DNA of 32,000 nt from Candidatus Iainarchaeum sp. (GTDB lineage: Archaea > Iainarchaeota > Iainarchaeia > Iainarchaeales > CSSED10-239). Position 1 is the stretch's first letter. Every line of letters begins with the position of its first letter. Under the pieces are notes generated by a model. That model did no database searches and was not told where the DNA came from. It saw nothing but the letters and a program-made list of their open reading frames with translations. The position numbers and the translations under genes were made by a program. Location of the stretch: the NCBI GenBank assembly GCA_003559395.1, contig PWLL01000077.1:1-32000 (forward strand). Direction: 5' to 3'. Shown here in pieces: positions 1 to 20,699 of the stretch.

Positions 1-991
1 CATTTTTATAACTAAAAATTGTACCGTCTTCTAACAAACCTTTTCTTTTATAACTCATTCTCAAGAAATACCATTTTCTTAAAAGCTTGCCCATCAATCC
101 CAATTCTTCATTATTATAATATGCTTCAACTTGAAACAACTTGCCGCCGTGCCACCCAGTATTGTCTTTGTTTCTACTATGTAAGTTTGCTTGAATCATT
201 ATGTGTGGGTACAAGCTGCTGTAATCATTTGCTATTATTAAGTCATAAAAAGATATTTTTTTATCTGTTATGTTTTGTTTTGCGTGAAATTCTTTGTCCG
301 CAGGATAACTAACATAACCTCCTTCTATTTTCACTCTCTCGTTGTTATCTTTATTATAAATAGGTTCTAAATCTAACGCATAACAATCTGCTTTATAACC
401 AAACTTAGCCATAGTATCAGTTAAATATTTTTTCTTTTTAACATCATCTTCAGAAACAAAATCTTTAAACGCTTCAAAATATTTCTCTAACCACTCGTAT
501 AATTTTTTGGTTATTTCTATATCTCGTTTAGTATATTTTATTATTTTTTTTCTTTCTTCTGGAGTCCAAGTGTTTTTATTAAATATATTATAATCTATTT
601 TATCTTTTGCTTCTTCGTCTGTTACTAAATCTAAAAATCTTGTAATGTAATCAAGACTATAACTCATTAATTCTAATCCAAGCATTCCTTTTTTTGTCGT
701 CATAGAACCTGCTCTTTTTTTTATTATGTCGTAACAATCAACAAATAATTTATAGTCTAATTTTACTCCAAACTTTTCTATTATGGGGTTGTCAAACTCT
801 ATATTATTAAACCCAACCAATATTCTGTGTTCGTCGACAAGTTTTTGTATAAATTCTTTATCTGTATAAGGTATAATATAATGTTTATTTGTTTTATAAG
901 AATATGCACCAAATACTTTTAATTCATTATCATTAACATCTCCTGTCTTATTGCTAGTTTCTATATCATATATTAAAACATCTTCTTCCAT
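1..991 (-). CDS. polB: Family B DNA polymerase, N-terminal ~330 codons (partial; continues past the left edge)
   Basis: Absent from the ORF track because it has no stop in the window. The minus-strand frame from ATG at 991-989 reads MEEDVLIYDIETS (ExoI DxE), GFNNIEFDNPII (ExoII), YTKRDIEITKKLY (ExoIII YxxxD) and DYSSLYPHIM (motif A, DxxSLYP). The frame stays open to position 2. Confidence 0.85.
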   Translation of the reverse strand, partial: MEEDVLIYDIETSNKTGDVNDNELKVFGAYSYKTNKHYIIPYTDKEFIQKLVDEHRILVGFNNIEFDNPIIEKFGVKLDYKLFVDCYDIIKKRAGSMTTKKGMLGLELMSYSLDYITRFLDLVTDEEAKDKIDYNIFNKNTWTPEERKKIIKYTKRDIEITKKLYEWLEKYFEAFKDFVSEDDVKKKKYLTDTMAKFGYKADCYALDLEPIYNKDNNERVKIEGGYVSYPADKEFHAKQNITDKKISFYDLIIANDYSSLYPHIMIQANLHSRNKDNTGWHGGKLFQVEAYYNNEELGLMGKLLRKWYFLRMSYKRKGLLEDGTIFSYKN

Positions 992-993
992 TA

Positions 994-1227
994 TCAAATG
1001 TCTCCGTTTGATTTCATTATTGATAACATTCCACCAACTAATATAGTTATTATTCCTGTAGTATACATGACGCCGCTAATCCAATTAAACATATTAATAC
1101 CTATTAATGGTAACACAATTGGGGTACAAGTTATTATTATTCCTATTATTAATACTGGGTGAACCCCAGAAAAACTTGGTCGTTCATAATATTGTCCTTT
1201 TTTATTCAAAAAATTGTTGTTTGACAT
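994..1227 (-). CDS. Small membrane protein (two hydrophobic helices)
   Basis: ORF track. Hydrophobic runs VLIIGIIITCTPIVLPLIGI and GIITILVGGMLSI. The stop lies 3 nt from the polB ATG. Confidence 0.5.
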   Translation of the reverse strand: MSNNNFLNKKGQYYERPSFSGVHPVLIIGIIITCTPIVLPLIGINMFNWISGVMYTTGIITILVGGMLSIMKSNGDI

Positions 1228-1772
1228 TTTTCACCTAATTTGTATTTTTCTTTAATCCACTTGTATTGTTTGTATTTTTTTAACTTATTATTTTTTATTC
1301 CATTAATTAGTTTTCTCAAATGTTCTCTTAATCGTTCTTCTTTCATTCCCGGTTTCCAATCAAGAACTATTTTTAAAACTTTTTCCTCACTATCTATTAG
1401 TGGGTGCAACAAAGCTTTTATTAATAATGATGTGTAACTTTCAACGTTTTTTTCGTTGGTTATTTTGACTTTTGGAACTTCAACCGTTTTTGTTTTTTCT
1501 TTTGGTTTTTTTGTTGAAACTTTTTTTTCTTCTTTAATAACTTCTTGTATTAGTTGTTCGTTTGTTTTAGATTCTAATTGTTTTTCAAGTGTTTGATTCA
1601 TCAATCTTATTTTTTCTGTGTTTAATTCTTTATATTTTTCTTCTAATTCTTCCATCTGTTTATTAAAATCATTAGAACTTATACTGTCTTCTTTGTGATT
1701 TAAATCTATTTTTTCTTTTATTATTTGTTTAATTTTTTCATTAATTTCTTCAATCATACCAGTCACCCTCAA
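1206..1772 (-). CDS. Lys/Glu-rich coiled-coil protein, function unknown
   Basis: ORF track. Long charged heptad-like stretches. Overlaps both neighbours in operon fashion. Confidence 0.5.
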   Translation of the reverse strand: MRVTGMIEEINEKIKQIIKEKIDLNHKEDSISSNDFNKQMEELEEKYKELNTEKIRLMNQTLEKQLESKTNEQLIQEVIKEEKKVSTKKPKEKTKTVEVPKVKITNEKNVESYTSLLIKALLHPLIDSEEKVLKIVLDWKPGMKEERLREHLRKLINGIKNNKLKKYKQYKWIKEKYKLGEKCQTTIF

Positions 1773-2307
1773 ACGTTATATAAACATTAAAACCTTTAAG
1801 TTTTATTTTAAAAACATTTTCTTTAAAATTGTCATTAACTATGATATTTATTTTATCTTTTTTTATTGTTTGAACTATTGCAAAATTTTCTATTAAATCT
1901 AAATCATCTTCATCGTGCATTTCAAAAACATATTCAACATTTAATTTGTTTAATCGTTTCAAAACAGTATCTTCTAAACAATGTAAATTATGAGTTTGTA
2001 ATTTTACTATAAATTCTATGTTGTTTGCTGTTGTGAGAGGTTTTGTTTTACCATTAATAAATACTAACACTCTTGCCAAAGGATTGATTTTTTGTATCTT
2101 TTTACACAAGCCATTTACTTCTTTTTGTTGTGTTAATAATTCATCTCCTTTAATGGTTATTATTTGGTGTGGAGAAACATTTTTAATAATTGTTTCTATT
2201 GATTCTTGATAACCTTTTTGACTTAATTCTATTATATAAGATTGTTTACCTATCAAATGTTCTTTTAAAAAATTAACTTCTTCTCTACTTATTTTTAGCA
2301 TTATCAA
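1750..2307 (-). CDS. Hypothetical protein
   Basis: ORF track. 185 codons open in a very AT-rich background and co-oriented with overlapping neighbours. Confidence 0.5.
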   Translation of the reverse strand: MIMLKISREEVNFLKEHLIGKQSYIIELSQKGYQESIETIIKNVSPHQIITIKGDELLTQQKEVNGLCKKIQKINPLARVLVFINGKTKPLTTANNIEFIVKLQTHNLHCLEDTVLKRLNKLNVEYVFEMHDEDDLDLIENFAIVQTIKKDKINIIVNDNFKENVFKIKLKGFNVYITFEGDWYD

Positions 2308-2662
2308 AATCCTCTACTTCTTTTTTTAATTTTTCCAAATCAACTTTTTCTCTTTTTTTTATTTTACTTTTTTTCAAAAAATGTTTAATGTCTTCATCAG
2401 TTATATTTAATAATGTTAATAATTTATTAACAATTTTTAATGTTTTTTTTCCTTCATCTGTTAAATATATGTTATGTCTTGCACCAACTTTTTTTAATGT
2501 TATCCATTTTAATTTAATAAAAGATTTTTTTATGTCATGTAAATGTTTATAAGTTATTTTACTATCTAAAAAAATATCATATAAGCACCTACCATCTTTT
2601 TCTAAAAATTTTAAAAAAATCATATAGTCTGGAATAATTATTTGTTTGTGTTGTGTGTTCAT
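2285..2662 (-). CDS. Putative winged-helix DNA-binding protein
   Basis: ORF track. The ITYKHLHDIKKSFIKLKWITLKKVGARHNIYLTDEGKK segment has a helix-turn-helix plus beta-wing pattern. Motif-level guess only. Confidence 0.4.
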   Translation of the reverse strand: MNTQHKQIIIPDYMIFLKFLEKDGRCLYDIFLDSKITYKHLHDIKKSFIKLKWITLKKVGARHNIYLTDEGKKTLKIVNKLLTLLNITDEDIKHFLKKSKIKKREKVDLEKLKKEVEDFDNAKNK

Positions 2663-2732
2663 TTTTTAAAACCCCATTAATCCTTGTTTTGGTTTAGTTG
2701 TTGGTCATTCTTTATCACCTTGTTCGAGAAGA

Positions 2733-2752
2733 CTCTGCCCTTCAGGGCGGAG
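2733..2752 (+). repeat. Hairpin at the right end of the IscB insertion: CTCTGCCC-TTCA-GGGCGGAG
   Basis: 8-bp stem (one G:T pair) with a TTCA loop, read directly. Same core and orientation as the hairpin at 4186-4205. Confidence 0.6.
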
Positions 2753-2774
2753 ATGAATCGAACCTCGTTCTCGT

Positions 2775-4139
2775 TCATATTTGTAATCCTTTTCCATATT
2801 TTGTTACCTCTACACATTTAATATTTTTGTTAATTGTATTTCCTAAATCATCTGTTAATTTAACCCAAGTTCCTTTGTTAAACACACCTTTAGATGTATA
2901 AATTTTGTTGTCAAATTTAACTAAATCATTTGATTGTATTTTGTATCTCTGCCTTCTAATACTTGGTTTAAACCCTTTCCTGTTAAGTTGCAGGCAACGA
3001 TTGTTTCTTCTTATTTGCTTCAAATTACTGATTATACATCTTGTTTGATTACTTCCACCAGCTATGATGAATGCGTCGTTTACGTGTGATTTTTCTAATT
3101 CAAGTTTTTGTCTGTTTTCTTTTGTTATGTAACCAAACGTGTGTTCGTAATTGTTTTTATCAACTAATCTTGTCCAAACATTGTTCATAACGCTTGTGTC
3201 TTTGAAACTTTTTGGTTTAGTAAATTTGTGTTTGATTTTTCCTGAGTGAAAATCTTTGTGGCACTTTAAATGTAATGTAACTAAGTTATCGGGTCTATTA
3301 CTACCACCATCTTTTCTCTGAATAATATGGTGTGTTTCAAGTATTCCTCCTTGCTCTTTGCATATTTGACAAGTGTATTTATCTCTTGTAAATATGAATG
3401 CTCTAAGGTTATTATAACCGCTCATTTGACCTTGTTGATACTCGGCTCCTTCTATGTCTGCATTTTGTAGTTTCTGTGTGTCAAACTTTGCAACTTCCAC
3501 GACTATGTTGTTAATAGGTAACAACTTTGTTATTTTGTTAATTAATGTTTGGTGTGTGTCAAGTTTATGTTGTATACTTGGTGCTAGCCAACCTTCTTCT
3601 CGTTTTCGGTTGTTGAATCTTGGTTCTCGATACCATAACTTGTTACGTCTTCCTCTTCTATACATTGCTCGCTCTATTAGTTTTTCACTCACATTTTGTC
3701 TTAGTTCTAATTCACCACTCACCAATTCTTGTGTCTCAGTTATCGCTGAGAAACCAATCACTTTACTTCCTGCATCTATGCCGAGAGTGATTGGTTGCGT
3801 GGTTTCTCCTGTTGCAATAGTTAGTTGTATAGTGAATGGTTTTCTTTTGATAACTATTGCTTTTCCTTGTTTTAGTAATTTGTTTGCTTTTTGTTGTTTG
3901 CAAGGCATCAAAGGTTGCCCCTTGATGTTTTGCACATACACAATATCAGATACTCTCAAGTTCTGATTCCCTGTATGTTGGGAATGGTTCTCTTCGGAGT
4001 TGTTAGAAAAGGTTTTTAAGTCTTGCTCACTAAGAATTTCCTCTCTGTTTAAAGACAAGACCATAGAGCTACCGACTAGAGAAGTATCAGTAGGTATGTA
4101 TGTATTTCTCTTTCCTAACTTCTGCATTTTTGTTTCCAT
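2775..4139 (-). CDS. iscB: IscB, an OMEGA-family RNA-guided RuvC/HNH nuclease
   Basis: Motifs in order: PLMP domain VYVQNIKGQPLMPCKQQKANKLLKQGKAIVIKRKPFTIQL; RuvC-I LGIDAGSKVIGFSAI; Arg-rich bridge helix RAMYRRGRRNKLWYREPRFNNRKR; RuvC-II IVVEVAKFD; HNH CQICKEQGGILETHHIIQRKDGGSNRPDNLVTLHLKCHKDFH; RuvC-III HVNDAFIIAGG; beta-rich C-terminal tail. The conserved core starts near residue 61 (TTG at 3959 or GTG at 3941). The ATG at 4139 has an AGGAGG 5 nt upstream, so the true start is uncertain. Confidence 0.85.
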   Translation of the reverse strand: METKMQKLGKRNTYIPTDTSLVGSSMVLSLNREEILSEQDLKTFSNNSEENHSQHTGNQNLRVSDIVYVQNIKGQPLMPCKQQKANKLLKQGKAIVIKRKPFTIQLTIATGETTQPITLGIDAGSKVIGFSAITETQELVSGELELRQNVSEKLIERAMYRRGRRNKLWYREPRFNNRKREEGWLAPSIQHKLDTHQTLINKITKLLPINNIVVEVAKFDTQKLQNADIEGAEYQQGQMSGYNNLRAFIFTRDKYTCQICKEQGGILETHHIIQRKDGGSNRPDNLVTLHLKCHKDFHSGKIKHKFTKPKSFKDTSVMNNVWTRLVDKNNYEHTFGYITKENRQKLELEKSHVNDAFIIAGGSNQTRCIISNLKQIRRNNRCLQLNRKGFKPSIRRQRYKIQSNDLVKFDNKIYTSKGVFNKGTWVKLTDDLGNTINKNIKCVEVTKYGKGLQI

Positions 4140-4191
4140 CTTTGCCTCCTAATCAACCAATTGCTCTCAAACCTCACGGCTCAAGCCCCTT
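3960..4191 (-). ncRNA. Candidate omega-RNA scaffold for IscB (guide predicted from the flank at 4192 to about 4211)
   Basis: In known loci, IscB omega RNAs lie directly 5' of, or overlapping, the iscB start. My hand count gives about 41% G+C over 3961-4200, against about 20% for 4321-4380. Several stems are visible on the minus strand, e.g. ATTCCC-N8-GGGAAT and GTCTTG-N31-CAAGAC. No covariance model was run. Confidence 0.4.
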
Positions 4192-4673
4192 CCTTCAGGG
4201 AGGGGTGATTGACATGTTCGTAATTGGTCTATGTTCATATAATTTCTAGTCCAGTATTGTTTATCTATTCCATAAAAACTGAACCAATTAACTTTGTCTT
4301 TATCGATTTCTTTTAACAATGTTTGTTTCATTAAATTTATTTGTGTATCAGATAAGTTAAAATGTTTTTGTATTTTTTCGTATAAAAAAAAGTATCTATC
4401 TTGTTTGTCATCTTTTTTTGGATATTTAATAAAAGGTGTTTTGTTCAATTTTTTTCCATCAAAAAACAACAACGACCATGCAGCACTTAAATACACTTTA
4501 GGGGATGTGTAGAACACGAATTTGTTTAATACTCTTGCTTGCCGCACGGTTATGTTGTTCAAAGAAAGAAATCTTTGAATTACTACTGGTTGAATACAAC
4601 TATCGTCTAATTCAATAATCCATTTACTTGATGGATTAGTATACAAGTTTTTCAATATATCAAACACGTTCAT
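4167..4673 (-). CDS. Hypothetical protein, possibly a clamp-loader accessory subunit (T4 gp62-like); its 3' end is altered by the IscB insertion
   Basis: ORF track. It overlaps the stop of the RFC-like gene and follows the T4-like order clamp, loader, gp62. PVVIQRFLSLNNITVRQARVLNKF loosely resembles the gp62-family pattern as I remember it. The last 7 codons (RGLSREV) are read from inside the insertion. Confidence 0.4.
   Translation of the reverse strand: MNVFDILKNLYTNPSSKWIIELDDSCIQPVVIQRFLSLNNITVRQARVLNKFVFYTSPKVYLSAAWSLLFFDGKKLNKTPFIKYPKKDDKQDRYFFLYEKIQKHFNLSDTQINLMKQTLLKEIDKDKVNWFSFYGIDKQYWTRNYMNIDQLRTCQSPLPEGRGLSREV
4186..4205 (+). repeat. Hairpin at the left end of the IscB insertion: CCCCTTCC-TTCA-GGGAGGGG
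   Basis: 8-bp stem (one G:T pair) with a TTCA loop, read directly. It straddles the insertion boundary at 4191/4192. Confidence 0.6.
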
Positions 4674-5572
4674 TTTACCATTTCTATTAATGAAGTTGTG
4701 AAAATTATTATTGGTTCTCCTTCATTAAATTTTAAATCATTTGCACAAGTTACTTGAATCATTTTAACATTGTCTTCCAAACAAGATTTTAACCAAAAAA
4801 ATTTGTTCAAATTTCTAAAATCTATCTCGTGAGTAAAAACATATTCTTGCACAAATCGTCTATCTTTTTCTTTTATTTTGTCCCACAACATCTGATATTC
4901 GTCGTCAGAACTTTTTGCGTTTGTTTTTGTTACAGGTTTGTTATCTATTTTTAAATCTTGTAACACTTGCACACAATTTCTAATACTTGGATAATTTATA
5001 TCAACAATGTTTTGTAGTCCTTCTAAGTCATATTCTAAGTTTTCGTTAACACATATTTTCATTAAGTATTCTACTATTTCTTCTTTTTTTGGTTGATTGA
5101 ATTTTATTGTTGCACAACGACTTTTTAGTGCGTCACTTATTTTGTGGTAATAGTTACAAGAAATTATAAACAAAGCATTCTCGTGGTATATTTCCATCAA
5201 ACTTCTTAAAGCGTCTTGTGCGTCATTGGTTAATTTGTCTCCTTCATCAAAGAACACTATTCTTCTAACACCTTTTTTTGTGGATTGTGTTTTTACAAAT
5301 CCATTAACTTTATCTCTAATTGTTTCTATTTTTCTATCGTCAGAACCATTCAACATAAGTGCATCTGCACCTAATGTTTTAATAATAATTCGGGCAATTG
5401 ACGTTTTGCCCGTACCCGCCGTATCAGAATGAAGTATTAAATGTTGCATTGATTGTGGTTCTTGTAATCTATTAGCAATTTTATTTTTTACTTCTAATCC
5501 AACAAAGCTTTCTAATGTTTTTGGTCTATATTTTTCAATCCACATACTATTAATAGGGTCAAATTCTTTCAT
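4670..5572 (-). CDS. Clamp-loader AAA+ ATPase (RFC small subunit / gp44-like)
   Basis: WIEKYRPKTLESFVG (RFC box II), Walker A GTGKTS, Walker B FFDEGD, QDALRSLME, and the SRC motif in LKSRCATIKF. Confidence 0.85.
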   Translation of the reverse strand: MKEFDPINSMWIEKYRPKTLESFVGLEVKNKIANRLQEPQSMQHLILHSDTAGTGKTSIARIIIKTLGADALMLNGSDDRKIETIRDKVNGFVKTQSTKKGVRRIVFFDEGDKLTNDAQDALRSLMEIYHENALFIISCNYYHKISDALKSRCATIKFNQPKKEEIVEYLMKICVNENLEYDLEGLQNIVDINYPSIRNCVQVLQDLKIDNKPVTKTNAKSSDDEYQMLWDKIKEKDRRFVQEYVFTHEIDFRNLNKFFWLKSCLEDNVKMIQVTCANDLKFNEGEPIIIFTTSLIEMVK

Positions 5573-5592
5573 CTTATTTACCTAAAAAAATT

Positions 5593-5805
5593 TTAATCTT
5601 CGTCAGAAAAATTTATTTCTTGCACTACTAAAGTATATAATACAACATCTAAATTATGTTCGTCTTTATACACTGTTGTTGTTAGTTGAACTTTTGTTGG
5701 TTCTTTACCAAAAGATTCTCTATATTCTTGTTGTAATCTTTCGTAATCAGTATCTTCTAGTATATATAAATTGTTTGTGTAATTCATTTTTTTAGTCCTC
5801 CGCAT
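5593..5805 (-). CDS. Hypothetical small protein
   Basis: ORF track. Lies between the clamp and clamp-loader genes and overlaps the clamp stop. Confidence 0.45.
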   Translation of the reverse strand: MRRTKKMNYTNNLYILEDTDYERLQQEYRESFGKEPTKVQLTTTVYKDEHNLDVVLYTLVVQEINFSDED

Positions 5806-6490
5806 CTATTCTTGGTGCTAATAAAAATTGTATTTTATATTTGTCGTTTTCAATAACTGCTTTTATTAAATAATCTGGTTTTGCTTCAAACGCTATTGTG
5901 TCGTCAATACTTTTAAACATTTTAACAAATGGTTCTCCAAACTTTAATTTTACTCCACCTTTAGTTCCTTCGCTTTTAATATTTCTTGTAAATTTGTATT
6001 TTCCATCGTTAGATAATATTAATCCATTTTCAACAGTTTCTATTCTTACCAAAATATCTTTGTTAAGTTGTGTGTCTTGAATAAAGTCTATTAATTCTTT
6101 TCCGTTTACATTAAAACTTGTTGTAAATTCTTGTAGTTTTGGAACATCTGGCATTGGTGTGATAAATCTTTCGTCGACCAATTCAAGTTTTAGTTCTTTG
6201 GAATTTGTTTTTGCTGTTAGTAAATTTCCTTCAACATTAAATTCTATTTCTTTTTCTAATCTGTTAAACACTTGTACTAAAACAGATAATTCGTCCACAC
6301 CCACTTTTCCCAATGCAACATAATCAACAAAATTTTCTTTTTTTAATGTTGCATGAACCATACTGGTTGCATCTGCTGTTACTGCTTCAACATATAAACC
6401 TTTATCTGTAAAGTCTAAAAGACATTGGTCTACTTGTTCCATTCTTATTTTTTTCAAAAAATCTATTAACACATTTTTTTCTATTTTCAT
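5792..6490 (-). CDS. PCNA-like sliding clamp
   Basis: 232 aa, the typical clamp size. The C-terminal YKIQFLLAPRIDAED resembles the PCNA C-terminus (YYLAPKIEDEE type). Sits next to the clamp loader. Confidence 0.7.
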   Translation of the reverse strand: MKIEKNVLIDFLKKIRMEQVDQCLLDFTDKGLYVEAVTADATSMVHATLKKENFVDYVALGKVGVDELSVLVQVFNRLEKEIEFNVEGNLLTAKTNSKELKLELVDERFITPMPDVPKLQEFTTSFNVNGKELIDFIQDTQLNKDILVRIETVENGLILSNDGKYKFTRNIKSEGTKGGVKLKFGEPFVKMFKSIDDTIAFEAKPDYLIKAVIENDKYKIQFLLAPRIDAED

Positions 6491-6648
6491 TTTTTACCTC
6501 GTTGTTTTTTTGTTGTTATGACTTCTTTTATATCTAATTCTTTCTTCATTATAGTTCTCATTTTTTCCAATATTTGTTTTTTGTTTGGCAAAAATTTTGT
6601 TGTATAATCTTCATCATTTAGATACATTGTTACTTGTATGTTTGGCAT
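6487..6648 (-). CDS. Small protein (53 aa), possibly ribbon-helix-helix
   Basis: Below the ORF-track size cut-off. ATG at 6648 has GGAGG about 8 nt upstream. Reads MPNIQVTMYLNDEDYTTKFLPNKKQILEKMRTIMKKELDIKEV... The TGA stop overlaps the clamp ATG (ATGA). It is the first gene after the promoter box at 6691-6698. Confidence 0.4.
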   Translation of the reverse strand: MPNIQVTMYLNDEDYTTKFLPNKKQILEKMRTIMKKELDIKEVITTKKQRGKK

Positions 6649-6674
6649 TTTTTGTTCCTCCGTATTCTTTAATT

Positions 6675-6705
6675 AACTAAACATAACTACTATATAAATG
6701 TTTTG
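6675..6705 (-). promoter_or_regulatory. BRE/TATA-like promoter box (minus strand CAAAACATTTATATAGTAGTTATG)
   Basis: Member of the conserved motif family found at 10054-10107, 14083-14136, 19590-19610 and 20641-20665. The TATA element (6698 to 6691) overlaps the stop codon of the upstream helicase gene. Confidence 0.55.
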
Positions 6706-8933
6706 TTTTTTGTTACCTCGTGACCCTCTTTTTTAAAACCTCTAATTCTTCCAATACTTGAAAGTTTGAAAAAAACAATATTATCAAAAAAATCATAATA
6801 TATTGCATTGTCTTTGCTGTCATGTGTTCTTAATGCTCTTCCCAGTGTTTGAATGCTAGTTCTTTCAAGTTTATGAGCACTTGCATTAATTACTATGTTT
6901 AATCTAGGTATATCAATTCCTTCCTCAAAAATACTTATAGTGGATATTAATATTTTTTGTGAACCATCAGTAAAGTCTTCAAACATTTGTTCTCTTTTTT
7001 TATCACTAATTTTTCCGTGCAAATACTTACTATTAGGAATTAGTTGTTCCAATAACTCGCCGTGTTTAACATATTTAACTAATATTAATATTGTTTTATT
7101 AGAATGATTTTCACATAATTGTTTTATTGTTTCGTTTCTTTTAGTATTATTTATTATACATTCGTCAAAAAAAATTCTGTATTTAATGCCGTCTTTTAAG
7201 TTATCAACTAAGTCACCATAAGCTTTAAGTGTTTTATCGACAAATTTGTTTTGTTCAGATAATTTTTTATCAATTTCTTCTAATATTAACTCATTACATT
7301 TATTCTCCATTAACTCTAATTCTTCTTTGGTGTTTACGTCTGTTAAAAATATTATTTCTGGTTTAACTAAAAACCCTTTAGTTATTAATTCTTGTCCTTT
7401 TAAAGAATAAATAACTTCCCCTAATATTGATGTTACTCTCAAATCACAACCTTGATTATTTTTTGCAGTTGCACTAACACCTAATCTGTACTCTATGTTT
7501 TTTAATAATTTGGATAAAGTGATAAATCTTGGGCTGTGAGTTTTATGACATTCATCTACTATAAACACTCTAATTGTTTTAAAATAATCTTCTAATTCAT
7601 CTTTATATTTTATTAACGATTGTATAGTGGCAATAGTAATATTTTCTATTTGTTTGTTGCCCATTCCTATTATGCCAATAGGTGTTCCTAGTTCTGTTTC
7701 AAACTCTTTTTTTGTTTGTGTTAATAATCTTTTTTTATCTACTACGAATAATGTTTTTAATCCTAATCTTCTAACAATTTCTATTGTTATTAATGTTTTG
7801 CCTGCACCTGTTGATAATTCTAAAATGCCGTTGTTTAAACCTTTTTTATTAATGTATGTGTCTACCGCTTGTATTTGATAATCTCTTAATTCTTTACCAC
7901 TTAATAGTTTTTGTGGCATGTCTATTTTTGTTTCATCAAAACATCTATTATCTTGTAATTTTATAATAGGTGTTTTATTAATACTTCTTGCATAATTATG
8001 AATGGTTTCTACTAATGAATCAACTAAACCTATACTAATGTTTTTAAATTTTTTATTCCACAAACATTTTTTTGTGTTCATATTAGGATATCTTTTTTTT
8101 AAAAAAATTGCACTTTGATTTTCATAAGTATATTTATTAAATAATAATTCATTTAATTCTTCTGAAAAATCTCCTTTAACAAAAACTTCTCCACCATATA
8201 TATTTAATAAAAAATTCATTGTTGTTTCAGGATTTTGTTCTTCAACATCCCATAAATGTTTGTAAGGACAAAAAAAATATCCTTTATTAAATGGTGGCAA
8301 TTTGTCTGGGTTGTTTAAATAATAATGAATTTTTTCCAAAGTTTTTTTGTGGTATTGTTCTGCGTTTTTTATATCTTGTATTGTTGGAATAATTATCATA
8401 ACACTATTTTCGTAACGCAAATAACACACTTTTATTTCTTTAAGTAATATATTGTATTTTCTATAATATTGCCAAACATAATATTTCATTTGAACGGTGT
8501 ATTCTAACTTATTATGTTCATTCATTTGAGAAGTTTTCCAATCACACATAAAATGTGTTTCAGTATTAACACCATCTAAATATGATACGCAATCAGGAAA
8601 AAATATTTTTAGTTCTGTGTGAGTTAAATCAAAGTTTAATTTTATTCCGTTAAGAATCATTTCCCAAGTTAACTCTTTTTCATGTGCTAATTTTGTTTCA
8701 TCTAATTTAAACTTAGTCCATAATTGTTCAAACTGCTCTGCTATTATTGATTGTTCTGTTTGTTTATTTTTATAAAATGTTTCCAAACACTCGTGAACAA
8801 CTGTTCCTCTGTTGGCATAACACATATCGCTTACACCAGGAATTTTTTGTATGTATTGCATATACCAAGTTCTCGGACATTGCCAAAACAAATTCATTTG
8901 TGAAAATGACAATGGTCTATTGTATGTTTTCAT
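6690..8933 (-). CDS. Fusion of a Cas4-like PD-(D/E)xK nuclease and an SF2 (DExH) helicase
   Basis: N-terminal part: QCPRTWYMQY, GTVVHECLE, FMCDWKTS, QMKYYVWQY, FFCPYKHLW (Cas4/RecB-nuclease pattern with Cys ligands). C-terminal part: helicase motifs LSTGAGKTL (I), VDECHK (II), SATAKN (III), QTLGRALRT (VI). Confidence 0.8.
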   Translation of the reverse strand: MKTYNRPLSFSQMNLFWQCPRTWYMQYIQKIPGVSDMCYANRGTVVHECLETFYKNKQTEQSIIAEQFEQLWTKFKLDETKLAHEKELTWEMILNGIKLNFDLTHTELKIFFPDCVSYLDGVNTETHFMCDWKTSQMNEHNKLEYTVQMKYYVWQYYRKYNILLKEIKVCYLRYENSVMIIIPTIQDIKNAEQYHKKTLEKIHYYLNNPDKLPPFNKGYFFCPYKHLWDVEEQNPETTMNFLLNIYGGEVFVKGDFSEELNELLFNKYTYENQSAIFLKKRYPNMNTKKCLWNKKFKNISIGLVDSLVETIHNYARSINKTPIIKLQDNRCFDETKIDMPQKLLSGKELRDYQIQAVDTYINKKGLNNGILELSTGAGKTLITIEIVRRLGLKTLFVVDKKRLLTQTKKEFETELGTPIGIIGMGNKQIENITIATIQSLIKYKDELEDYFKTIRVFIVDECHKTHSPRFITLSKLLKNIEYRLGVSATAKNNQGCDLRVTSILGEVIYSLKGQELITKGFLVKPEIIFLTDVNTKEELELMENKCNELILEEIDKKLSEQNKFVDKTLKAYGDLVDNLKDGIKYRIFFDECIINNTKRNETIKQLCENHSNKTILILVKYVKHGELLEQLIPNSKYLHGKISDKKREQMFEDFTDGSQKILISTISIFEEGIDIPRLNIVINASAHKLERTSIQTLGRALRTHDSKDNAIYYDFFDNIVFFKLSSIGRIRGFKKEGHEVTKNKTFI

Positions 8934-8943
8934 TAAAGATTAA

Positions 8944-9135
8944 TCACCCCAGCAAAACCTCTCGTAAATCTTCGATAAATATTGTTTTATGTGTGTTTTT
9001 TAAAGTGTTAATTTTCTTTTTTAAGTCACTAATTTTAATTACTTCTTCTGGTGCAAACACCACACCATTTATAATGGTGTTTTTTCTTTTACTTTCAAGT
9101 TTTCTAAAATCAACAAACCATTTATTCATTTTCAT
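8944..9135 (-). CDS. Hypothetical small protein
   Basis: ORF track. GAGGA lies upstream of the second ATG. Confidence 0.45.
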   Translation of the reverse strand: MKMNKWFVDFRKLESKRKNTIINGVVFAPEEVIKISDLKKKINTLKNTHKTIFIEDLREVLLG

Positions 9136-9296
9136 TCCTCGTTTTTTGGTTTATATATACTTTCAATAACTAAATCTGCAACATGAAAAATAATAACAAG
9201 TTTTAGAAAATATTCTAAATTGCTTACAACCATTGACAAAAATTCTTCTTCATTAATACCATATTTTTTCATAAAATATTTAGTGATATTTTCCAT
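9132..9296 (-). CDS. Hypothetical small protein (54 aa)
   Basis: Below the ORF-track cut-off. Reads MENITKYFMKKYGINEEEFLSM... The stop is coupled to the next gene by ATGA. No clear Shine-Dalgarno sequence. Confidence 0.3.
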   Translation of the reverse strand: MENITKYFMKKYGINEEEFLSMVVSNLEYFLKLVIIFHVADLVIESIYKPKNEE

Positions 9297-9411
9297 TTTT
9301 ATGATAATTGATATCTCTATCCATTCTCCTCAACTCTTTTATTAAATTCTTTTTTAACTCTTCCAAATCTTCTGATTGAGCAATATCTAAATATTTGTTT
9401 TCTTGTCTCAT
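9280..9411 (-). CDS. Hypothetical small protein (43 aa)
   Basis: Below the ORF-track cut-off. ATG at 9411 has GGTG 7 nt upstream. Reads MRQENKYLDIAQSEDLEELKKNL... Confidence 0.3.
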   Translation of the reverse strand: MRQENKYLDIAQSEDLEELKKNLIKELRRMDRDINYHKNGKYH

Positions 9412-9437
9412 TTTATTCACCTAAAAAAATAAAAAAA

Positions 9438-10025
9438 TTAAAGTACTTCTACTTTATATAATCCGCCTTCACTTTTTGCTTTTGCAACTTTTTTCTTGTG
9501 TTGCTCTGCTTCTTCTGTTGTTTTAAAGTCTCTTATTTTCATTAAATCTTTTATTGGAAGTGTTGCATCTTTGCCGTTGTATATGTGTGTTATTCGTATA
9601 GTTATGCCGTTAAACGTTTTATTCTCTTTAACCTTTGCCATCAACACACTACCTTTTCCAAACAACGCACCATATAAATCCCAAGACTGAATTGTAAATC
9701 TTTCTCCACCGTCTGTTTCAAGAATATATTCAACTCTTTTAGAATCTGGTTCATCTCTTTTTTTTATTCCAGTCCAAAACTTATCCCCTGTTTTTGTTGT
9801 GATTTCTCTACCTGGTTTGTTTACAACTTTTGAAATAGTGAAACTTAAACTCTCGCCCACTTCAGGTGTTTTCAAAAAAGTATAACTCATAAAATCATCT
9901 GGTGTCATCTCTACTTCTTTAGATTTTTCTTTAACTTCTTCATTGTTTAAAACAATGGATTCTTCATCTGCTGTATTAAATTCTTCTGAATCAAACAGTT
10001 CTTCAAATTCATTTTTTTCACTCAT
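9438..10025 (-). CDS. Hypothetical protein with an acidic N-terminus (a ssDNA-binding role is only a guess)
   Basis: ORF track. GGAGG lies 8 nt upstream of the ATG. It is the first long gene after the promoter at 10079-10086. Confidence 0.5.
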   Translation of the reverse strand: MSEKNEFEELFDSEEFNTADEESIVLNNEEVKEKSKEVEMTPDDFMSYTFLKTPEVGESLSFTISKVVNKPGREITTKTGDKFWTGIKKRDEPDSKRVEYILETDGGERFTIQSWDLYGALFGKGSVLMAKVKENKTFNGITIRITHIYNGKDATLPIKDLMKIRDFKTTEEAEQHKKKVAKAKSEGGLYKVEVL

Positions 10026-10053
10026 TTTTTTCCTCCAAACAAATAATTGTTTT

Positions 10054-10107
10054 CATATGATTAACCAAACATAACTAATATATAAATGTTTTGAAAGTTT
10101 ATAAGTA
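10054..10107 (-). promoter_or_regulatory. 54-nt promoter cassette, copy A (TATA 10086 to 10079)
   Basis: 52/54 identical to 14083-14136 by eye. The minus strand reads ...CAAAACATTTATATATTAGTTATGTTTGGTTAATCATATG. Confidence 0.6.
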
Positions 10108-10227: not shown

Positions 10228-11415
10228 TCATAATACATCCTCCCATTCTTTTATTATTTTATGTTTATCAAAGTCTTTTGCTCTTTTTAATCCTTTTGAA
10301 TATTTCTTTTGTAAATCTTTGTTTTTCATCATCTCGAACATTGTTTCTGTAAGTTTTTTTTCTTCTTTTGTTGGTGGTTTTTCTTTTAAATCACTAAAAT
10401 TATTCGGTTCGTCAAATGTTTTTAATAAAACCCCATATTTTCCTCGATGTGGATATTTTATTTTTTCTTCTATATTTAATTCTGGACAAAGTATTTCTCT
10501 AGGTCCTGAATCACAATCTGTTGATATTATTGGTTTGTTTTGCGATAGAACTTCTGTTAATACATTTCCAAACCCCTCATAATCTGATGTAAACACAAAA
10601 CAATCTGATTTTTTAATATAGGGGAATACATTTTTTACAACTCCTAAAAAGAAAACTTTGTCTTCTAATCCTAATTTCTTAGTTAGGTTTCTTAAATCCT
10701 TTTCTAATTCTCCTTTTCCAAGAATTATTAATTTTACTTTATTATTTTTTTTAACTACTTCTTTAAAACTTCTAATAAGATTCCAATGAGCTTTTTGTTC
10801 GGTTAAACGCCCTATTGTTATAAAATTGTAATCTTTGCCCATTATTATTCTGTGTTCTTTGTTTGTTATTTTTTCTTTGCTTAAATCTAGAAAACGATTT
10901 ATGTCTTGAATATTGTAGATTGTTTTTGTATTTTTTAGATTAAACTGAGTTTTTAATATATTTTTAACACCTCTAGATAATGCAACCACTAAATCTGCTT
11001 TTGGATAAATGATTTTTGTTAATATTTGAAATAATTTTGGGTGTTTTAGAGGATTATTTCTAACTGAAACTATTGTTTTTGATTTGTTTCTAAAAAGTGT
11101 TTTACTTAAAACTGAGGAAAAATTAGAATCTTCAAGGAAAGATATTGTTGTATTTATTTTGTTTTTTTTGCATATATTAGATATCTTTATTGTTCTTGAG
11201 AATAATTTATAAGTTTTAGTAAATACGTCTTCTGTTAATTTTTCATTTAAACAGATAAGTTTTCCTTCAAATTCATATTTTGGTTTAAAATCGTAGAATA
11301 TTAAAAAAGTTACATCATGTCCTAATCTTTTAAGATTTGTTCCTACTTGAGATGCAATCTTTTCTGCTCCACCTCCTATTCTAAGATGATGTACTATTAT
11401 TAAAATTTTTTTCAT
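10228..11415 (-). CDS. GT4-family (GT-B fold) glycosyltransferase
   Basis: N-terminal HHLRIGGGAEK and C-terminal SDYEGFGNVLTEVLSQNKPIISTDCDSGPREIL (EX7E-type motif). Confidence 0.75.
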   Translation of the reverse strand: MKKILIIVHHLRIGGGAEKIASQVGTNLKRLGHDVTFLIFYDFKPKYEFEGKLICLNEKLTEDVFTKTYKLFSRTIKISNICKKNKINTTISFLEDSNFSSVLSKTLFRNKSKTIVSVRNNPLKHPKLFQILTKIIYPKADLVVALSRGVKNILKTQFNLKNTKTIYNIQDINRFLDLSKEKITNKEHRIIMGKDYNFITIGRLTEQKAHWNLIRSFKEVVKKNNKVKLIILGKGELEKDLRNLTKKLGLEDKVFFLGVVKNVFPYIKKSDCFVFTSDYEGFGNVLTEVLSQNKPIISTDCDSGPREILCPELNIEEKIKYPHRGKYGVLLKTFDEPNNFSDLKEKPPTKEEKKLTETMFEMMKNKDLQKKYSKGLKRAKDFDKHKIIKEWEDVL

Positions 11416-12236
11416 TTTATGATTATTCCAACATATTTTTTGTTCTTTTTTATTATTATTGGTTCTTTTTTAATTTTATTACAAAATTCTATAAATGCTA
11501 TATTGTCAGATATATCATCTGATATTAATAGTCCTTTATTTTTTAGATTTTTCCAAATTATCGGATATGCCCACATTCTTCCTTTATAAGATTTATCAGA
11601 ATCATAATGACATAAATCTATTGAGGTATTTAGTTGTCTAATTGATTTTTTTAATGCTTGTCTATCTGGAAGTCTTATTAATGACCACTTTTTTTTAAAA
11701 AATTTGGGTATAACACATCCGACATAACTATCATTATTTCTAAATAAATAAGGCATATCTATACTTATAAGATTAGACTTATTTCTTGAATTAATAGATA
11801 GTAATATTGCAAGAGATGACCACCCATAAGCCACACCCGTTTCTAATGTTTTTTTTACCTTAAATTTTTCGCATAAATTATATATTAAATCTATATATCC
11901 TTCACCACCCATTTTTACAGGGCAATTTTTTTCTATTTGTCTAGATTCTTTTAATAATTTTGAAAATTTTTTATTAAAATTAATTTCTTTTATGTTTAAC
12001 TGTTCATATGCTTTTTTTAAGAATACGCTTTTTTTATCACATATTTCGATTGCTTCTTTTTTTGTAAGTTCTTTTTTAGACGGAAAATATTCGTTTTTAA
12101 ATATATAATATATTTGGGGTATTAATCTAGGTCTTTTAAAAAACCAAAATAATCCTTTTATTATTTTTTTAAAATGCAAAAATGTTGTTTTAATTTTGTT
12201 CAATTTGTTTCGCCTTTTTTTATTTCTCGAATCCAT
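11412..12236 (-). CDS. Putative class I SAM-dependent methyltransferase
   Basis: LETGVAYGWSSLAILLS (motif I-like), ISIDMP, HYDSDKSY. Embedded in the glycosyltransferase operon. Confidence 0.45.
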   Translation of the reverse strand: MDSRNKKRRNKLNKIKTTFLHFKKIIKGLFWFFKRPRLIPQIYYIFKNEYFPSKKELTKKEAIEICDKKSVFLKKAYEQLNIKEINFNKKFSKLLKESRQIEKNCPVKMGGEGYIDLIYNLCEKFKVKKTLETGVAYGWSSLAILLSINSRNKSNLISIDMPYLFRNNDSYVGCVIPKFFKKKWSLIRLPDRQALKKSIRQLNTSIDLCHYDSDKSYKGRMWAYPIIWKNLKNKGLLISDDISDNIAFIEFCNKIKKEPIIIKKNKKYVGIIIK

Positions 12237-13288
12237 TTTTCTATTATATTATTAAGTTCAAATCGTGTGTCTGATTTTATCTTCTTTCCTTTTTTTAATG
12301 CGTCATCAAGTGCTTTTTTAAACTCGTCTTTATTGTTGAATGGTACTATATATCCATACTTAGTTTTATTGTATGTTTTTAATTCTTTGTTTAATTCTAC
12401 ACCAAGTAGTTCTCGTGGTCCTGTCTGGCAATCGTTTGCAACACACACACATCCGCTTGCCAGTGCTTCCATTAATGCTCGTGGCATTCCTTCAAAAAGT
12501 GATGGTAAAACGAACACATCTGCTTTATTTAAGTATTTGTATACGTTATTCTTTGTACCTAAGAAATGTATGTTTTTTTGATTTTTTGTTTTTTCTTTAA
12601 GTTCTTGCTCGAGTGGTCCGTTTCCTATTACGAGTAAATTAACATCTTCTTCTATATCTTTGAACATGTCAAAAAACCATGCATAATTCTTCTGTGAAAC
12701 AAGTCGACCTACCATAACTATTGTTTTCTTTTCAAACAATTTCTTTTCTTTTCCTGTTATGGCCTCTTTTTTTTTCTTGTTTATTTCATCTAATTCTATG
12801 GCATTCCCGATTGCGACTGTGTCGAACTTCACTCTCTTTTGCATGGCTTTTGTAAGTACTATTGTTTTATCTGCTGTATTATGCAGATTTTTAAACCTAT
12901 AATATGCATTACCTTTACTTAAAATATTGTTTCGTATAAATGTCCACAATTTAAATTTTAACATTTTTTTACAAATTAATGCTACCATGTTTGCGTCTTC
13001 TGCATTGGACACAACTAAATCATATTTATTATTTTTAAGAAATTGTCTTAATTTTAGAGGAAAATAAACCAAAATTCTAAAACTTTTAATAATAATATTA
13101 TTGGCATAATTATAATTAAAATTGTGTCTTTTAACAAAATATTCATATTCATTTTTAAAATTATAAAAAGTCAAAATTTCTACAACATAATATTTGGCTA
13201 AACCTTTTGTAAGAATTGCCACAGAGTTCTCTGCACCACCTCCAACTTTTAAATTACTCACTATAAACAATATTTTTTTCTTTTTCAT
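12200..13288 (-). CDS. GT4-family (GT-B fold) glycosyltransferase
   Basis: SNLKVGGGAENS and PSLFEGMPRALMEALASGCVCVANDCQTGPRELL. Confidence 0.75.
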   Translation of the reverse strand: MKKKKILFIVSNLKVGGGAENSVAILTKGLAKYYVVEILTFYNFKNEYEYFVKRHNFNYNYANNIIIKSFRILVYFPLKLRQFLKNNKYDLVVSNAEDANMVALICKKMLKFKLWTFIRNNILSKGNAYYRFKNLHNTADKTIVLTKAMQKRVKFDTVAIGNAIELDEINKKKKEAITGKEKKLFEKKTIVMVGRLVSQKNYAWFFDMFKDIEEDVNLLVIGNGPLEQELKEKTKNQKNIHFLGTKNNVYKYLNKADVFVLPSLFEGMPRALMEALASGCVCVANDCQTGPRELLGVELNKELKTYNKTKYGYIVPFNNKDEFKKALDDALKKGKKIKSDTRFELNNIIEKWIREIKKGETN

Positions 13289-14085
13289 TTTTTCTTAATC
13301 ATGTAAAACAATTTTAAAACAAACCAATTAGGTAACAACAATAAAACATTTTCTAAAAATAATCTAATCGTACCTTTTAATCCAAGTTTCAAACCATTTT
13401 TAACTGCTATTTTTTTAACATAAATTGTATCTTTAATAACTCTTTTCATGTTAGTGTTTTTTATTTGATTTTTATGTAATCTATAATTTAAAACAAATGA
13501 ATTTAAATTATATATTTTGCAACCTTTTAAAAAAAATCTAAACCATAAATCATAATCTTGACTAGATTTTAAATAAGGAGAATAACACCCATATTTTTCA
13601 ACCAATATTCTTTTAAACATAACGGTGGGATGTGCTAATGGGTTCTCGATTTTTATTGTGTTAGCAATATCATGACTATAAATTCGTTTGCCAAAAAGTT
13701 TTCCTTTAGAGTCAATCAAGGTAATGTTTCCTCCAACGACATCAAATTTAGGAAACAATTTTAATTGTGTTTCAAACCTATCGTTGAAACAAACATCATC
13801 GGCATCCATTCTTGCAATATATTCGCCAGAACATTTTTTCAAACCAACATTCAAAGAACCAGTGCAACCTAAATTTTTATCATTCTTAAAACCTTTAATT
13901 CGTTTATCTTTCTTAGCATATTTTTGAATGATTTTCCAAGTATTATCTGTAGAACAATCGTCGATGATAATAAACTCAAAATCTTTAAATGTTTGTTTTA
14001 AAACACTTTCGATTGCTTCACCAATAAACTTTTCTGCATTATACGCCGGCATCAATACTGAAATTTTATTAATTTTTTTTACCAT
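13285..14085 (-). CDS. GT2-family glycosyltransferase
   Basis: ISVLMPAYNAEKFIGEAIESVLKQTFKDFEFIIIDDCSTDNT and RMDADD (DxD). The ORF track starts it at TTG 14097. I prefer ATG 14085 (MVKKINK...), which lies 22 nt downstream of the TATA box and suggests a leaderless mRNA. Confidence 0.8.
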   Translation of the reverse strand: MVKKINKISVLMPAYNAEKFIGEAIESVLKQTFKDFEFIIIDDCSTDNTWKIIQKYAKKDKRIKGFKNDKNLGCTGSLNVGLKKCSGEYIARMDADDVCFNDRFETQLKLFPKFDVVGGNITLIDSKGKLFGKRIYSHDIANTIKIENPLAHPTVMFKRILVEKYGCYSPYLKSSQDYDLWFRFFLKGCKIYNLNSFVLNYRLHKNQIKNTNMKRVIKDTIYVKKIAVKNGLKLGLKGTIRLFLENVLLLLPNWFVLKLFYMIKKK

Positions 14086-14136
14086 ATGATTAACCAAACA
14101 TAACTAGTATATAAATGTTTTGAAAGTTTATAAATA
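14083..14136 (-). promoter_or_regulatory. 54-nt promoter cassette, copy B (TATA 14115 to 14108)
   Basis: 52/54 identical to 10054-10107. Lies immediately upstream of the glycosyltransferase operon. Confidence 0.6.
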
Positions 14137-14142
14137 GTTTTT

Positions 14143-15411
14143 TTATAATTGTAATTTTTCCCCTGATTTTAAAATAATTTCTTTAAAATCTATTGCCAAA
14201 TCTTTAAATAATTTGGCTCTAACTAAAGAACTTTTTTCTTCAATGGTATCAACACAATATAATTGATATAATGAACTATAACCATCTTTTTTCTTTCTCA
14301 AAACTCTACCCATTCTTTGAATTGTTTGTTTATCGGTTGAATCTCCTGCCATTATTATTGCAACATCTAATTTTGGCAAATTATAACCTTCATCTAAAAC
14401 TTTACTAACTAATAATACACTAAATTTATCATTACGATAATCTATTAATGTTCGTTCCCTTGTTTTTTTATCTATACCACTATGAAGTACTCTACACTCT
14501 ATATTTGTGTCTAATAAGTGCCAATATATTTTAGAAGTTTGTTTGTTGTATTGATTAAAAACCAATATTTTGTTTTCCTTATGATTGTTTATTATTGTTT
14601 GAGTTATATCTATTTTATCAACATAATTGTTTACTAATTCTTTTTGTTCATTAATTAATGCCAGCATTTTCATTTTTAGTGGTGTGTTTGTTTTCATTAT
14701 TTTTTCAAACCCACCACCTGTGTTGTAAACTACATATAATTGTTGTTTTATATCATCATATTTGTCTCTTGTGTCTTGGTCTAATACAACACCTATATTA
14801 TAAAACACAAAAGGGTTTAATACTCCGTCTTCTAATGCTTCTGAAGGATTATATTTATAAATATTAAAATCAAACAATTCCAACAATTTTCTATGATTTT
14901 TATCTGCTCTTGCAAGTGTGGCTGTTAAACCTATTTTGTATTTAAAAGGTGTTTCCAAAATCTTTAATATTCTGTCTGTGCCTAAATTGTGTAATTCATC
15001 ACCTATAAACATATCAAACATTGTTAAAGGTATTCTATCAAGATTTTGTATGTTTGTAATAGTGATTCTACTATACTCTTTTATTGAACCATAATACACA
15101 CCTATTGATTGTATTGGAATACCATAATCAACTAATTCTTTATACCAACCTTCTTCCAATATAACATTTTTTGGCACGACTATTAACACTTTTAATTTTG
15201 GTTCTTTTAACAATAATTCTTGTAATATGTCAATTGTTATAAAAGTTTTACCAGCACCAGTACTAACTTCAAAAATAACATTTTTGTTGTTTTCATAAAA
15301 GAATTTTTTGGCTTTTATTTGCCAACTTCTCAAATCTGTTATATTTGTTTGTTTTTCTAAATTTGCTTCTATATTAAATAATTCATCAACATATTCATCC
15401 ATTTTATTCAT
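14143..15411 (-). CDS. SF2 DExH-box helicase (ResIII/UvsW/XPB-like)
   Basis: VSTGAGKTF (I), GDELHN (II), TATLARAD (III), QRMGRVLRK (VI). ATGA-coupled to the upstream methyltransferase. Confidence 0.8.
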   Translation of the reverse strand: MNKMDEYVDELFNIEANLEKQTNITDLRSWQIKAKKFFYENNKNVIFEVSTGAGKTFITIDILQELLLKEPKLKVLIVVPKNVILEEGWYKELVDYGIPIQSIGVYYGSIKEYSRITITNIQNLDRIPLTMFDMFIGDELHNLGTDRILKILETPFKYKIGLTATLARADKNHRKLLELFDFNIYKYNPSEALEDGVLNPFVFYNIGVVLDQDTRDKYDDIKQQLYVVYNTGGGFEKIMKTNTPLKMKMLALINEQKELVNNYVDKIDITQTIINNHKENKILVFNQYNKQTSKIYWHLLDTNIECRVLHSGIDKKTRERTLIDYRNDKFSVLLVSKVLDEGYNLPKLDVAIIMAGDSTDKQTIQRMGRVLRKKKDGYSSLYQLYCVDTIEEKSSLVRAKLFKDLAIDFKEIILKSGEKLQL

Positions 15412-19578: not shown

Positions 19579-19589
19579 TTAGTAATCAT

Positions 19590-20665: not shown

Positions 20666-20699
20666 TTAGATTATACAAAAACAATTTTTTGGTAAAAAA

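Follow-up and report, generated by a model that had tools for sequence, protein, structure and literature searches.

Introduction

IscB nucleases of insertion sequence (IS) elements use an omega RNA whose scaffold comes from the right end (RE) of the element and whose guide is encoded outside RE, the RNA being made by transcription that enters from outside (Meers et al. 2023, PMC10055086). TnpA and the nuclease, IscB, share AT-rich target-adjacent motifs (TAMs), TTTAT and TTCAT, in Geobacillus IS605 elements (PMC10055086). Only some 1.5% of iscB genes have tnpA in their vicinity, and about 98% of the loci are non-autonomous (PMC10055086). Here we describe an IscB/omega RNA element in a virus genome. 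It is found in a 32,000-nt stretch of DNA (positions 1 to 32,000 of contig PWLL01000077.1, assembly GCA_003559395.1, deposited as Candidatus Iainarchaeum sp.), which as a whole is referred to as the window.

Homing by OMEGA nucleases is an established model for IscB and TnpB on bacterial chromosomes and for TnpB on plasmids. Its extension to co-infecting phages is so far a proposal made in reviews; in one of 2026, such phages are only a theoretical target of 'non-restorative homing' and the experimental support is that of TnpB on plasmids (PMC13565253). No study of IscB homing in phages was found in the literature searched. Comparison of the window with related sequences suggests, with a probability that we put at about 0.8, that positions 2716..4213 constitute a non-autonomous ISC-type IS encoding IscB and its omega RNA, the guide of which would target the uninterrupted allele for homing or restoration.

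2716..4213, minus strand: whole IscB/omega RNA element, 1,498 bp, non-autonomous IS200/IS605-type (ISC), delimited by the empty site in L006 and the copy in L005

Element boundaries and the empty allele

Two sequences delimit the element: L006, a contig of another sample (ENA ERZ27301260), and L005, a Logan contig. L006, from a sibling virus, lacks the element and matches the window at 97% identity along 9 kb. Its positions 1422..7313 align to window 10091..4214 and its positions 7314..9046 to window 2715..983, and these alignment blocks place the element at 2716..4213 (1,498 bp) with no target duplication. L005 carries a copy in an unrelated context, 90% identical as DNA and 91% identical in IscB, and aligns to window 4213..2711 only, a span that opens with the first scaffold base of the omega RNA and ends shortly beyond the 3' hairpin, with the TAM included. 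The limits 2739..4191 given in an earlier note on this DNA are corrected by both alignments, and an element end at 2711 is ruled out because the empty site shows that ATAAA belongs to the target. Two runs, assembled independently, give the same element sequence. Hereafter the top strand of the transposon, from left end (LE) to RE, is the plus strand of the window.

2711..2715, minus strand: candidate TAM ATAAA (TTTAT on the top strand, 5' of LE), directly after the guide match in the empty allele
2733..2752, plus strand: subterminal LE hairpin CTCTGCCC-TTCA-GGGCGGAG, 17 nt inside the end, from a DNA fold
4186..4205, plus strand: subterminal RE hairpin CCCCTTCC-TTCA-GGGAGGGG, 8 nt inside the end, from a DNA fold and the HEARO alignment
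4214..4229, minus strand: guide segment of the omega RNA (GACCAATTACGAACAT), encoded by the flank within the 3' end of the upstream gene and lying directly 5' of HEARO position 1

Read in the iscB sense, the empty allele of L006 is …ATAGACCAATTACGAACAT|ATAAAGAACGACC…, and the 79 nt to the left of the junction, guide included, are identical in both viruses. The guide, for which a length of 16 nt is assumed by analogy with OgeuIscB, perfectly matches the empty allele and is followed there at once by ATAAA. No further guide match with up to two mismatches was found in the window. The same ATAAA also adjoins the L005 copy and a mini-element of the same virus that is described below. Comparison of the occupied and empty alleles indicates a clean insertion 3' of TTTAT, without target-site duplication or terminal inverted repeats. 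The LE and RE hairpins share the TTCA loop, and the RE hairpin, on the opposite strand, forms the first stem of the omega RNA. A scan of IMG/VR with the LE sequence gave no match.

No Y1 (HUH) transposase was found among the window open reading frames (ORFs) of at least 90 aa, none of which gave a Y1_Tnp match, in agreement with the earlier reading that the window is devoid of tnpA. Likewise, no TnpA was found for the next 10 kb in the precomputed Pfam lists of the adjoining contigs. The element is thus classified as non-autonomous. Its G+C content, previously noted to exceed that of the neighbouring genes, is 35.4% as against 26.6% for the rest of the window, which is about 4 standard deviations above the value for equally long segments elsewhere (standard deviation 2.2%, maximum 31.8%).

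The IscB protein

2775..3959, minus strand: iscB coding sequence with a probable TTG start, 394 aa, comprising PLMP, RuvC-I, bridge helix, RuvC-II, HNH, RuvC-III and a C-terminal TAM-interaction domain

The window ORF list contains a minus-strand ORF of 454 aa at 2775..4139, the numbering of which is used for the residues below. Pfam RRXRR (PF14239), a profile that spans PLMP, RuvC-I, the arginine-rich bridge helix and RuvC-II, matches residues 67-237 with an E-value of 4.1e-66 over profile positions 1-174 of 174. The HNH profile (PF01844) matches residues 257-299 at 1.8e-10, the domain being inserted between RuvC-II and RuvC-III. When all PDB chains were searched with phmmer, the matches were IscB, IsrB and small Cas9 only, with IscB as the best (6e-44 to 8e-42), and the alignment to OgeuIscB begins at residue 3 of the latter.

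The motifs GIDAG, VVEVAKF, THHII and SHVNDAF pair with GIDPG, VLELNRF, YHHVV and DHYLDAY, respectively, of the solved IscB proteins. The RuvC residues D122 (I), E215 (II), and H352 and D355 (III) are all present, as are H270/H271 and N285 of the HNH domain. An alignment of 24 homologues shows D122, E215, H271 and D355 to be invariant and H270, N285 and H352 to be nearly invariant, and C257, C260 and C293, the zinc-binding residues of the HNH domain, are conserved among the same homologues. The AlphaFold2 model of the ORF has a mean pLDDT of 68.7, with about 80 in the core. In a Foldseek search of this model against the PDB, the best eight matches are IscB-omega RNA-DNA complexes with E-values from 6e-26 (8csz) to 7e-18, followed by IsrB and then by compact Cas9 proteins. 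The TM-scores are low, about 0.37, because the domain arrangement differs in the RNA-free model.

These data bear out the complete IscB domain order and the full set of catalytic residues that had been read from the ORF translation. The profile search and structure prediction proposed at that time as checks, carried out here with Pfam, phmmer and Foldseek, all place the protein in IscB, and profile, structure and residue alignment alike lead away from a plain HNH or RuvC family with unaligned catalytic residues. By every criterion that sequence can test, the protein is a member of the IscB/ISC family, and guide- and TAM-dependent cleavage is predicted.

The omega RNA and the start of iscB

3982..4213, minus strand: omega RNA scaffold (Rfam HEARO, RF02033) found by cmscan, probably extending to about 3960, at the iscB start

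The HEARO match, which the earlier note overlooked, scores 111.8 bits (gathering score 83; E-value 1.5e-22) over model positions 1-211 of 211. It lies directly upstream of the iscB core on the same strand and overlaps the first 53 codons of the 454-aa ORF. Across 11 sequences, 28 of the 53 predicted base pairs keep pairing with changes on both sides. HEARO is also located upstream of iscB in all ten related loci tested (10/10), and is found nowhere on the empty-site contig.

Several observations indicate that the N-terminal extension of the ORF is RNA and not a selected protein. All Pfam and PDB matches start at residue 66-67, and residues 1-64 of the model have a pLDDT below 50 and no secondary structure. 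Among 41 distinct related loci, the three codon positions of the extension vary to a similar degree (0.88/1.01/0.89 bits), whereas those of the core show the usual third-position excess (0.96/0.77/1.44 bits). Between the window and L005 copies, the synonymous divergence (dS) and the ratio of nonsynonymous to synonymous divergence (dN/dS) are 0.029 and 1.2 for the extension, compared with 0.439 and 0.12 for the core. The omega RNA region is therefore about 15 times more conserved than the core at synonymous sites, and this contrast implies that the extension is constrained as nucleotides and the core as protein. Directly ahead of the V-[YF]-V..PLMP start, most of the related loci inspected have TTG, GTG or ATG. 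TTG serves as the Leu codon in 17 of the 20 loci of the 'N-L-R-V' subgroup, and often lies 7-8 nt past GGAGG. We accordingly rejected the 60-codon extension as a selected protein domain, on account of the absent codon periodicity, the dN/dS and dS values, the low pLDDT and the conserved downstream start. The real start of iscB is probably the conserved TTG at 3959, as judged from these alignments, with a product of 394 aa. Thus the ORF 2775..4139 given previously does exist, but its start is over-extended, residues 1-60 overlapping the omega RNA and being probably no protein.

Of 73 distinct related loci, 48 have no stop in the omega RNA frame over 55 or more codons ahead of the core, so that gene callers give IscB proteins of this clade that are about 60 aa too long. 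This open frame usually begins at a conserved ATG ('MQKL'), and in the window AGGAGG lies 5 nt before the ATG at 4139. The in-frame extension over the omega RNA (4139..3960, minus strand) shows no codon-level selection. More speculatively, the conserved open frame might reflect a coupling of translation to the balance between RNA and protein output.

The interrupted gene

4167..4673, minus strand: interrupted gene, 168-aa protein; its start overlaps the stop of the clamp-loader ATPase gene (translationally coupled), and its last 15 codons come from the omega RNA
2666..2715, minus strand: orphaned 3' end of the interrupted gene, 16 codons plus stop in the sibling, aligning to L006 7314..7363

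The replication module of this virus is T4-like, and its clamp-loader ATPase gene is followed by a conserved gene of 169 aa, the final 16 codons of which were the insertion site. The insertion swaps the last 16 residues (YKERPTTKPKQGLMGF) for 15 residues read from the omega RNA (CQSPLPEGRGLSREV), while the sibling version of the protein has 169 aa with a different and conserved tail. In 14 homologues of the 169-aa protein this tail ends in a conserved K-x-G-L-x-A-W-[FM], and loss of this motif makes a cost to the virus likely.

Pfam, PHROGs and the PDB yielded no function for the 168-aa protein or for the presumed sliding clamp encoded upstream. The position of the 168/169-aa protein corresponds to that of T4 gp62. 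The tail motif of this family (homologues P0124-P0136) might serve as a peptide that binds the clamp or the polymerase.

Further copies in the same virus

29359..29403, plus strand: 45-nt mini-element GTCAATCACTCCTCCCTGAAGGGCAGAGTCTTCTCGAACAAGGTG, in which the RE tip and the LE tip are joined by one hybrid hairpin; ATAAA follows at 29404..29408

Besides the L005 copy, the mini-element is an element copy at a different genomic site. It matches the pattern of the ends with 0-1 mismatch, where 0 matches are expected by chance. Nine codons separate it from the stop of a 735-aa ORF, with which it is in frame, and it is placed inside a further copy of the internal 42-nt repeat of that ORF (28114, 28687 and 29053). 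A sibling allele at this site was sought via exact proteins, which returned only contigs of the same virus.

A second IscB (P0024, a 471-aa ORF, 62% identical) is encoded on the parent contig (44,224 bp, NCBI). Its element occupies 3460..~4944 of L003, positions 1..2622 of which equal window 29379..32000, which puts it some 0.9-2.3 kb outside the window, past its end. A separate HEARO match belonging to this element scores 126 bits. The sibling lineage (L093) is without this second element as well, yet the site there is not cleanly empty: the sibling reads GAGAGA-AAC-ATGAAT, and the occupied site GAGAGA-GCC-[element]-ATAAG-ATGAAT. Hence the sibling allele departs from the guide at two TAM-proximal positions and from the occupied site by 5 nt at the TAM, and it could be either an ancestral difference or a resistance allele.

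Proposed mechanism and alternative explanations

Read-through of the operon would yield an RNA with about 16 nt of flank, GACCAATTACGAACAT, at its 5' end, followed by the scaffold 4213..~3960. IscB translated from the TTG at 3959 would bind this guide-scaffold RNA, and the resulting ribonucleoprotein is predicted to cut DNA in which the guide sequence is followed by ATAAA, as in the uninterrupted allele of the 97%-identical sibling. In the occupied allele the element parts the target from the TAM, which would make the carrier immune. A break in an element-free genome, be it that of a co-infecting sibling or one that had lost the element through excision by TnpA acting in trans, would be repaired from the occupied copy. 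Such repair would copy the element in, amounting to homing or restoration, whereas a move to new sites would require TnpA from elsewhere.

The orientation of the locus is compatible with the first of these steps. The element is co-oriented with the operon, on the same strand as the upstream genes, and no terminator-like site was found on the minus strand between those genes and the omega RNA. A copy of a 34-nt motif, which is probably a viral promoter, is placed at 6672..6705, upstream of the run of clamp, clamp-loader and iscB genes. Taken together, strand, motif and lack of a terminator fit read-through production of the guide and the orientation bias of Meers et al.

The same 34-nt motif, ATTAACyAAACATAACTAnTATATAAATGTTTTG, also occurs at 10060..10093, 14089..14122 and 19577..19610, and inverted at 20632..20691. 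It stands between gene runs and is oriented with the genes on each side of a strand switch at about 20 kb.

The guide match and the adjoining TAM in the empty allele imply a nuclease programmed against the uninterrupted allele, and therefore selfish homing is favoured. In addition, the dN/dS of 0.12 between the two iscB copies indicates purifying selection on the protein. Several points weigh against this reading. The candidate TAM derives from three insertion sites and one empty site. The empty allele is represented by a single contig, and IMG/VR, JGI metagenomes and GTDB genomes, when scanned by pattern, yielded no further alleles, occupied or empty. tnpA is missing from the window and the next 10 kb, and the TTG start of iscB is preceded by only a weak Shine-Dalgarno-like motif, AGGGA. 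Finally, co-infection and recombination of the two virus lineages, which were found in different samples, are assumed.

The virus might instead have co-opted the element as a weapon against co-infecting competitors, by marker exclusion comparable to that of T-even Seg and Mob, or against host DNA. The guide does match the genome of a close competitor within an essential-looking replication operon, the genome has two different IscB elements, iscB is under purifying selection, and co-infecting phages have been named as possible targets of such nucleases (PMC13565253). However, the guide is simply the flank into which the element inserted, as it would be for any selfish copy, and shows no trace of modification or retargeting, the window contains no second target, the insertion deletes a conserved C-terminal motif of the host gene at a likely cost, and the presence of the element is polymorphic between viruses that are 97% identical. 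We consider such co-option unlikely as the principal explanation, although it overlaps largely with homing since one cut would serve both. The earlier note held that selfish homing and co-option could not be separated. The native-flank guide, the perfect match to the empty allele and the lost host motif narrow this choice and make up the usual selfish arrangement, alongside which the virus may gain a side benefit in competition with element-free siblings.

Still less probable is an inactive relic that inserted once and now neither moves nor cuts, as the absence of tnpA, the non-ATG start codon and the mini-element, which shows decay of the family by internal deletion, might suggest. Against it, the catalytic residues and zinc-binding cysteines are intact, the omega RNA exceeds the Rfam gathering threshold over the full model, the dN/dS between the two copies indicates continued selection, and independent assemblies of two runs agree on the sequence. 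It is highly improbable that the protein is a plain HNH homing endonuclease of the free-standing kind or is left over from a type II CRISPR-Cas9 system. PHROGs and GenBank do label homologues 'HNH endonuclease', and Cas9 structures do appear lower in the fold search. Nevertheless, the HNH domain is embedded in a full RuvC fold that comes with PLMP and bridge helix, the gene is joined to a HEARO omega RNA, and the protein has 394 aa without a REC lobe. No CRISPR-like repeat array was found in the window, and neither cas1 nor cas2 among the ORFs scanned. The RuvC/PLMP/bridge helix profile, HEARO and the lack of a repeat array led us to exclude this candidate.

Returning to selfish homing, a broader reading can be offered tentatively, as one that we regard as somewhat less likely than its negation. 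Viral IscB/omega RNA elements may spread between co-infecting siblings as RNA-guided gene drives without TnpA, and the alleles of this virus pair could then be a snapshot of drive and resistance. This is suggested by the perfect target with its TAM in the sibling at the first site and by the two mismatches and 5-nt TAM change at the second.

Replication module

6690..8933, minus strand: PD-(D/E)XK/SF2 helicase
5792..6490, minus strand: 232-aa protein, a sliding clamp by position only
4670..5572, minus strand: clamp-loader ATPase, PHROG 168 at 2.6e-57
<1..~990, minus strand: polymerase N-terminus, family-B-like, with YDIET and SLYPH motifs

The order on the minus strand is helicase, 232-aa protein, 70-aa ORF, clamp-loader ATPase, 168-aa protein, element, four small genes and polymerase. 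The best phage relatives of the clamp-loader ATPase are those of T4-like Rhizobium and Agrobacterium phages (38%). The four small genes encode a 125-aa winged-helix-like protein and three small ORFs, and the sole hit of the polymerase fragment is of the 3'-5' exonuclease type (RNase_H_2, 1.1e-06). The position initially proposed, same-strand and flanked by the clamp-loader genes and polB, is broadly right; the N-terminus of the polymerase lies four small genes downstream.

Two more distant relatives, with about 50% identity, have the same gene order without IscB. Their polymerase, of 676-694 aa and with a faint DNA_pol_B Pfam match, is encoded five small genes past the 170-aa gene. When run accessions were looked up in papers for host or environment, a single distant relative could be located, in a South China Sea cold seep. 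The comparison with related viral contigs recommended in the earlier note thus finds the element absent at this position in the 97%-identical sibling and in both distant relatives, which supports insertion into a replication module.

Megablast of window 1200..9000 against 50,697 phage records gave no match, a search with the clamp loader found no close relatives in IMG/VR, and the exact 454-aa product is not on record.

Other features of the viral genome

Inteins represent additional selfish elements in this genome. A P-loop ATPase gene at 30232..32000 (plus strand), running past the window end, contains them in three matched stretches (Intein_splicing, 1.1e-29), one intein splitting Walker A (…TSDKG|C…N|SGKSS…). 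Adjacent paralogous DNA methyltransferases are encoded at 15408..16157 and 16163..16879 (minus strand; PHROG 67 at 4e-78 and 1e-75), the DNA repeats being 80-84% identical. The region 10228..14097 (minus strand), between two helicase genes of this virus-like genome, encodes two family 1/4 glycosyltransferases, a GtrB-like glycosyltransferase and a class I methyltransferase.

Viral IscB proteins

Viral IscB proteins are already present in databases. PHROG 119 and PHROG 2214, both named 'HNH endonuclease', match the window IscB at 3.6e-77 and 2.1e-45, an IscB homologue is present in 41 of the 50,697 deposited phage records, and two peptide patterns alone gave at least 118 confirmed IscB matches in IMG/VR. 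The value of the present locus therefore consists in being a well-defined natural example of an occupied and an empty site. It offers a natural test case in the form of a 97%-identical virus pair with and without the element, an exact guide-target match and a putative TAM, together with a measurable cost, the replaced tail of a conserved protein. It also illustrates that viral iscB genes are under-annotated, being labelled 'HNH endonuclease' or having the ORF extended 60 codons into the guide RNA. Furthermore, a compact IscB of 394 aa with a defined guide, scaffold and candidate TAM, ATAAA, is directly testable.

Comparison with known systems

The closest described systems are the ISGst IscB element of G. 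stearothermophilus (Meers et al. 2023) and OgeuIscB (7UTN, 7XHT and 8CSZ), with which the window IscB shares domain order and catalytic residues. As in other ISC-family elements, a HEARO-type omega RNA lies directly upstream and takes its guide from the flank outside RE, and the apparent TAM is an AT-rich pentanucleotide identical to the insertion motif (TTTAT here; TTTAT and TTCAT in Geobacillus). The co-orientation with the upstream gene, the lack of a nearby tnpA and the empty site as target are also common to them. In contrast to those cases, the element is carried by a virus, in whose genome it sits within a clamp-loader/polymerase module, and the empty allele resides in a sibling virus rather than being an excision product in the same cell. 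The window IscB is also about 100 aa shorter than OgeuIscB, and shares only about 25% identity with the solved IscB proteins in the fold-search alignment.

A second likeness is to the T-even Seg and Mob genes, known for intronless homing and marker exclusion. Here too, a nuclease gene is wedged between conserved phage replication genes, is polymorphic among close relatives, and is predicted to cut the element-free relative and to be copied in by repair (for the concept, see PMC13565253). Unlike Seg and Mob, the element has transposon ends and would recognise its target by guide RNA and TAM instead of by protein, so that self and non-self would differ by the presence or absence of the element and not by nucleotide substitutions.

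The deposited phage homologues, such as those of Clostridium c-st and of Staphylococcus Kayvirus-like, Ralstonia and Microcystis phages, belong to the same protein family and are mostly annotated 'HNH endonuclease', although their identity to the window IscB is at most 44%. Finally, the TnpB-driven IS605 drive in plasmids (Mears et al. 2025), as far as it is described in PMC13565253, likewise involves TnpA-free spread into element-free replicons, termed 'non-restorative homing'. According to the same account, that drive is experimental and relies on TnpB, a Cas12-like nuclease with the guide at the 3' end, whereas the spread proposed here would be that of an IscB in a virus.

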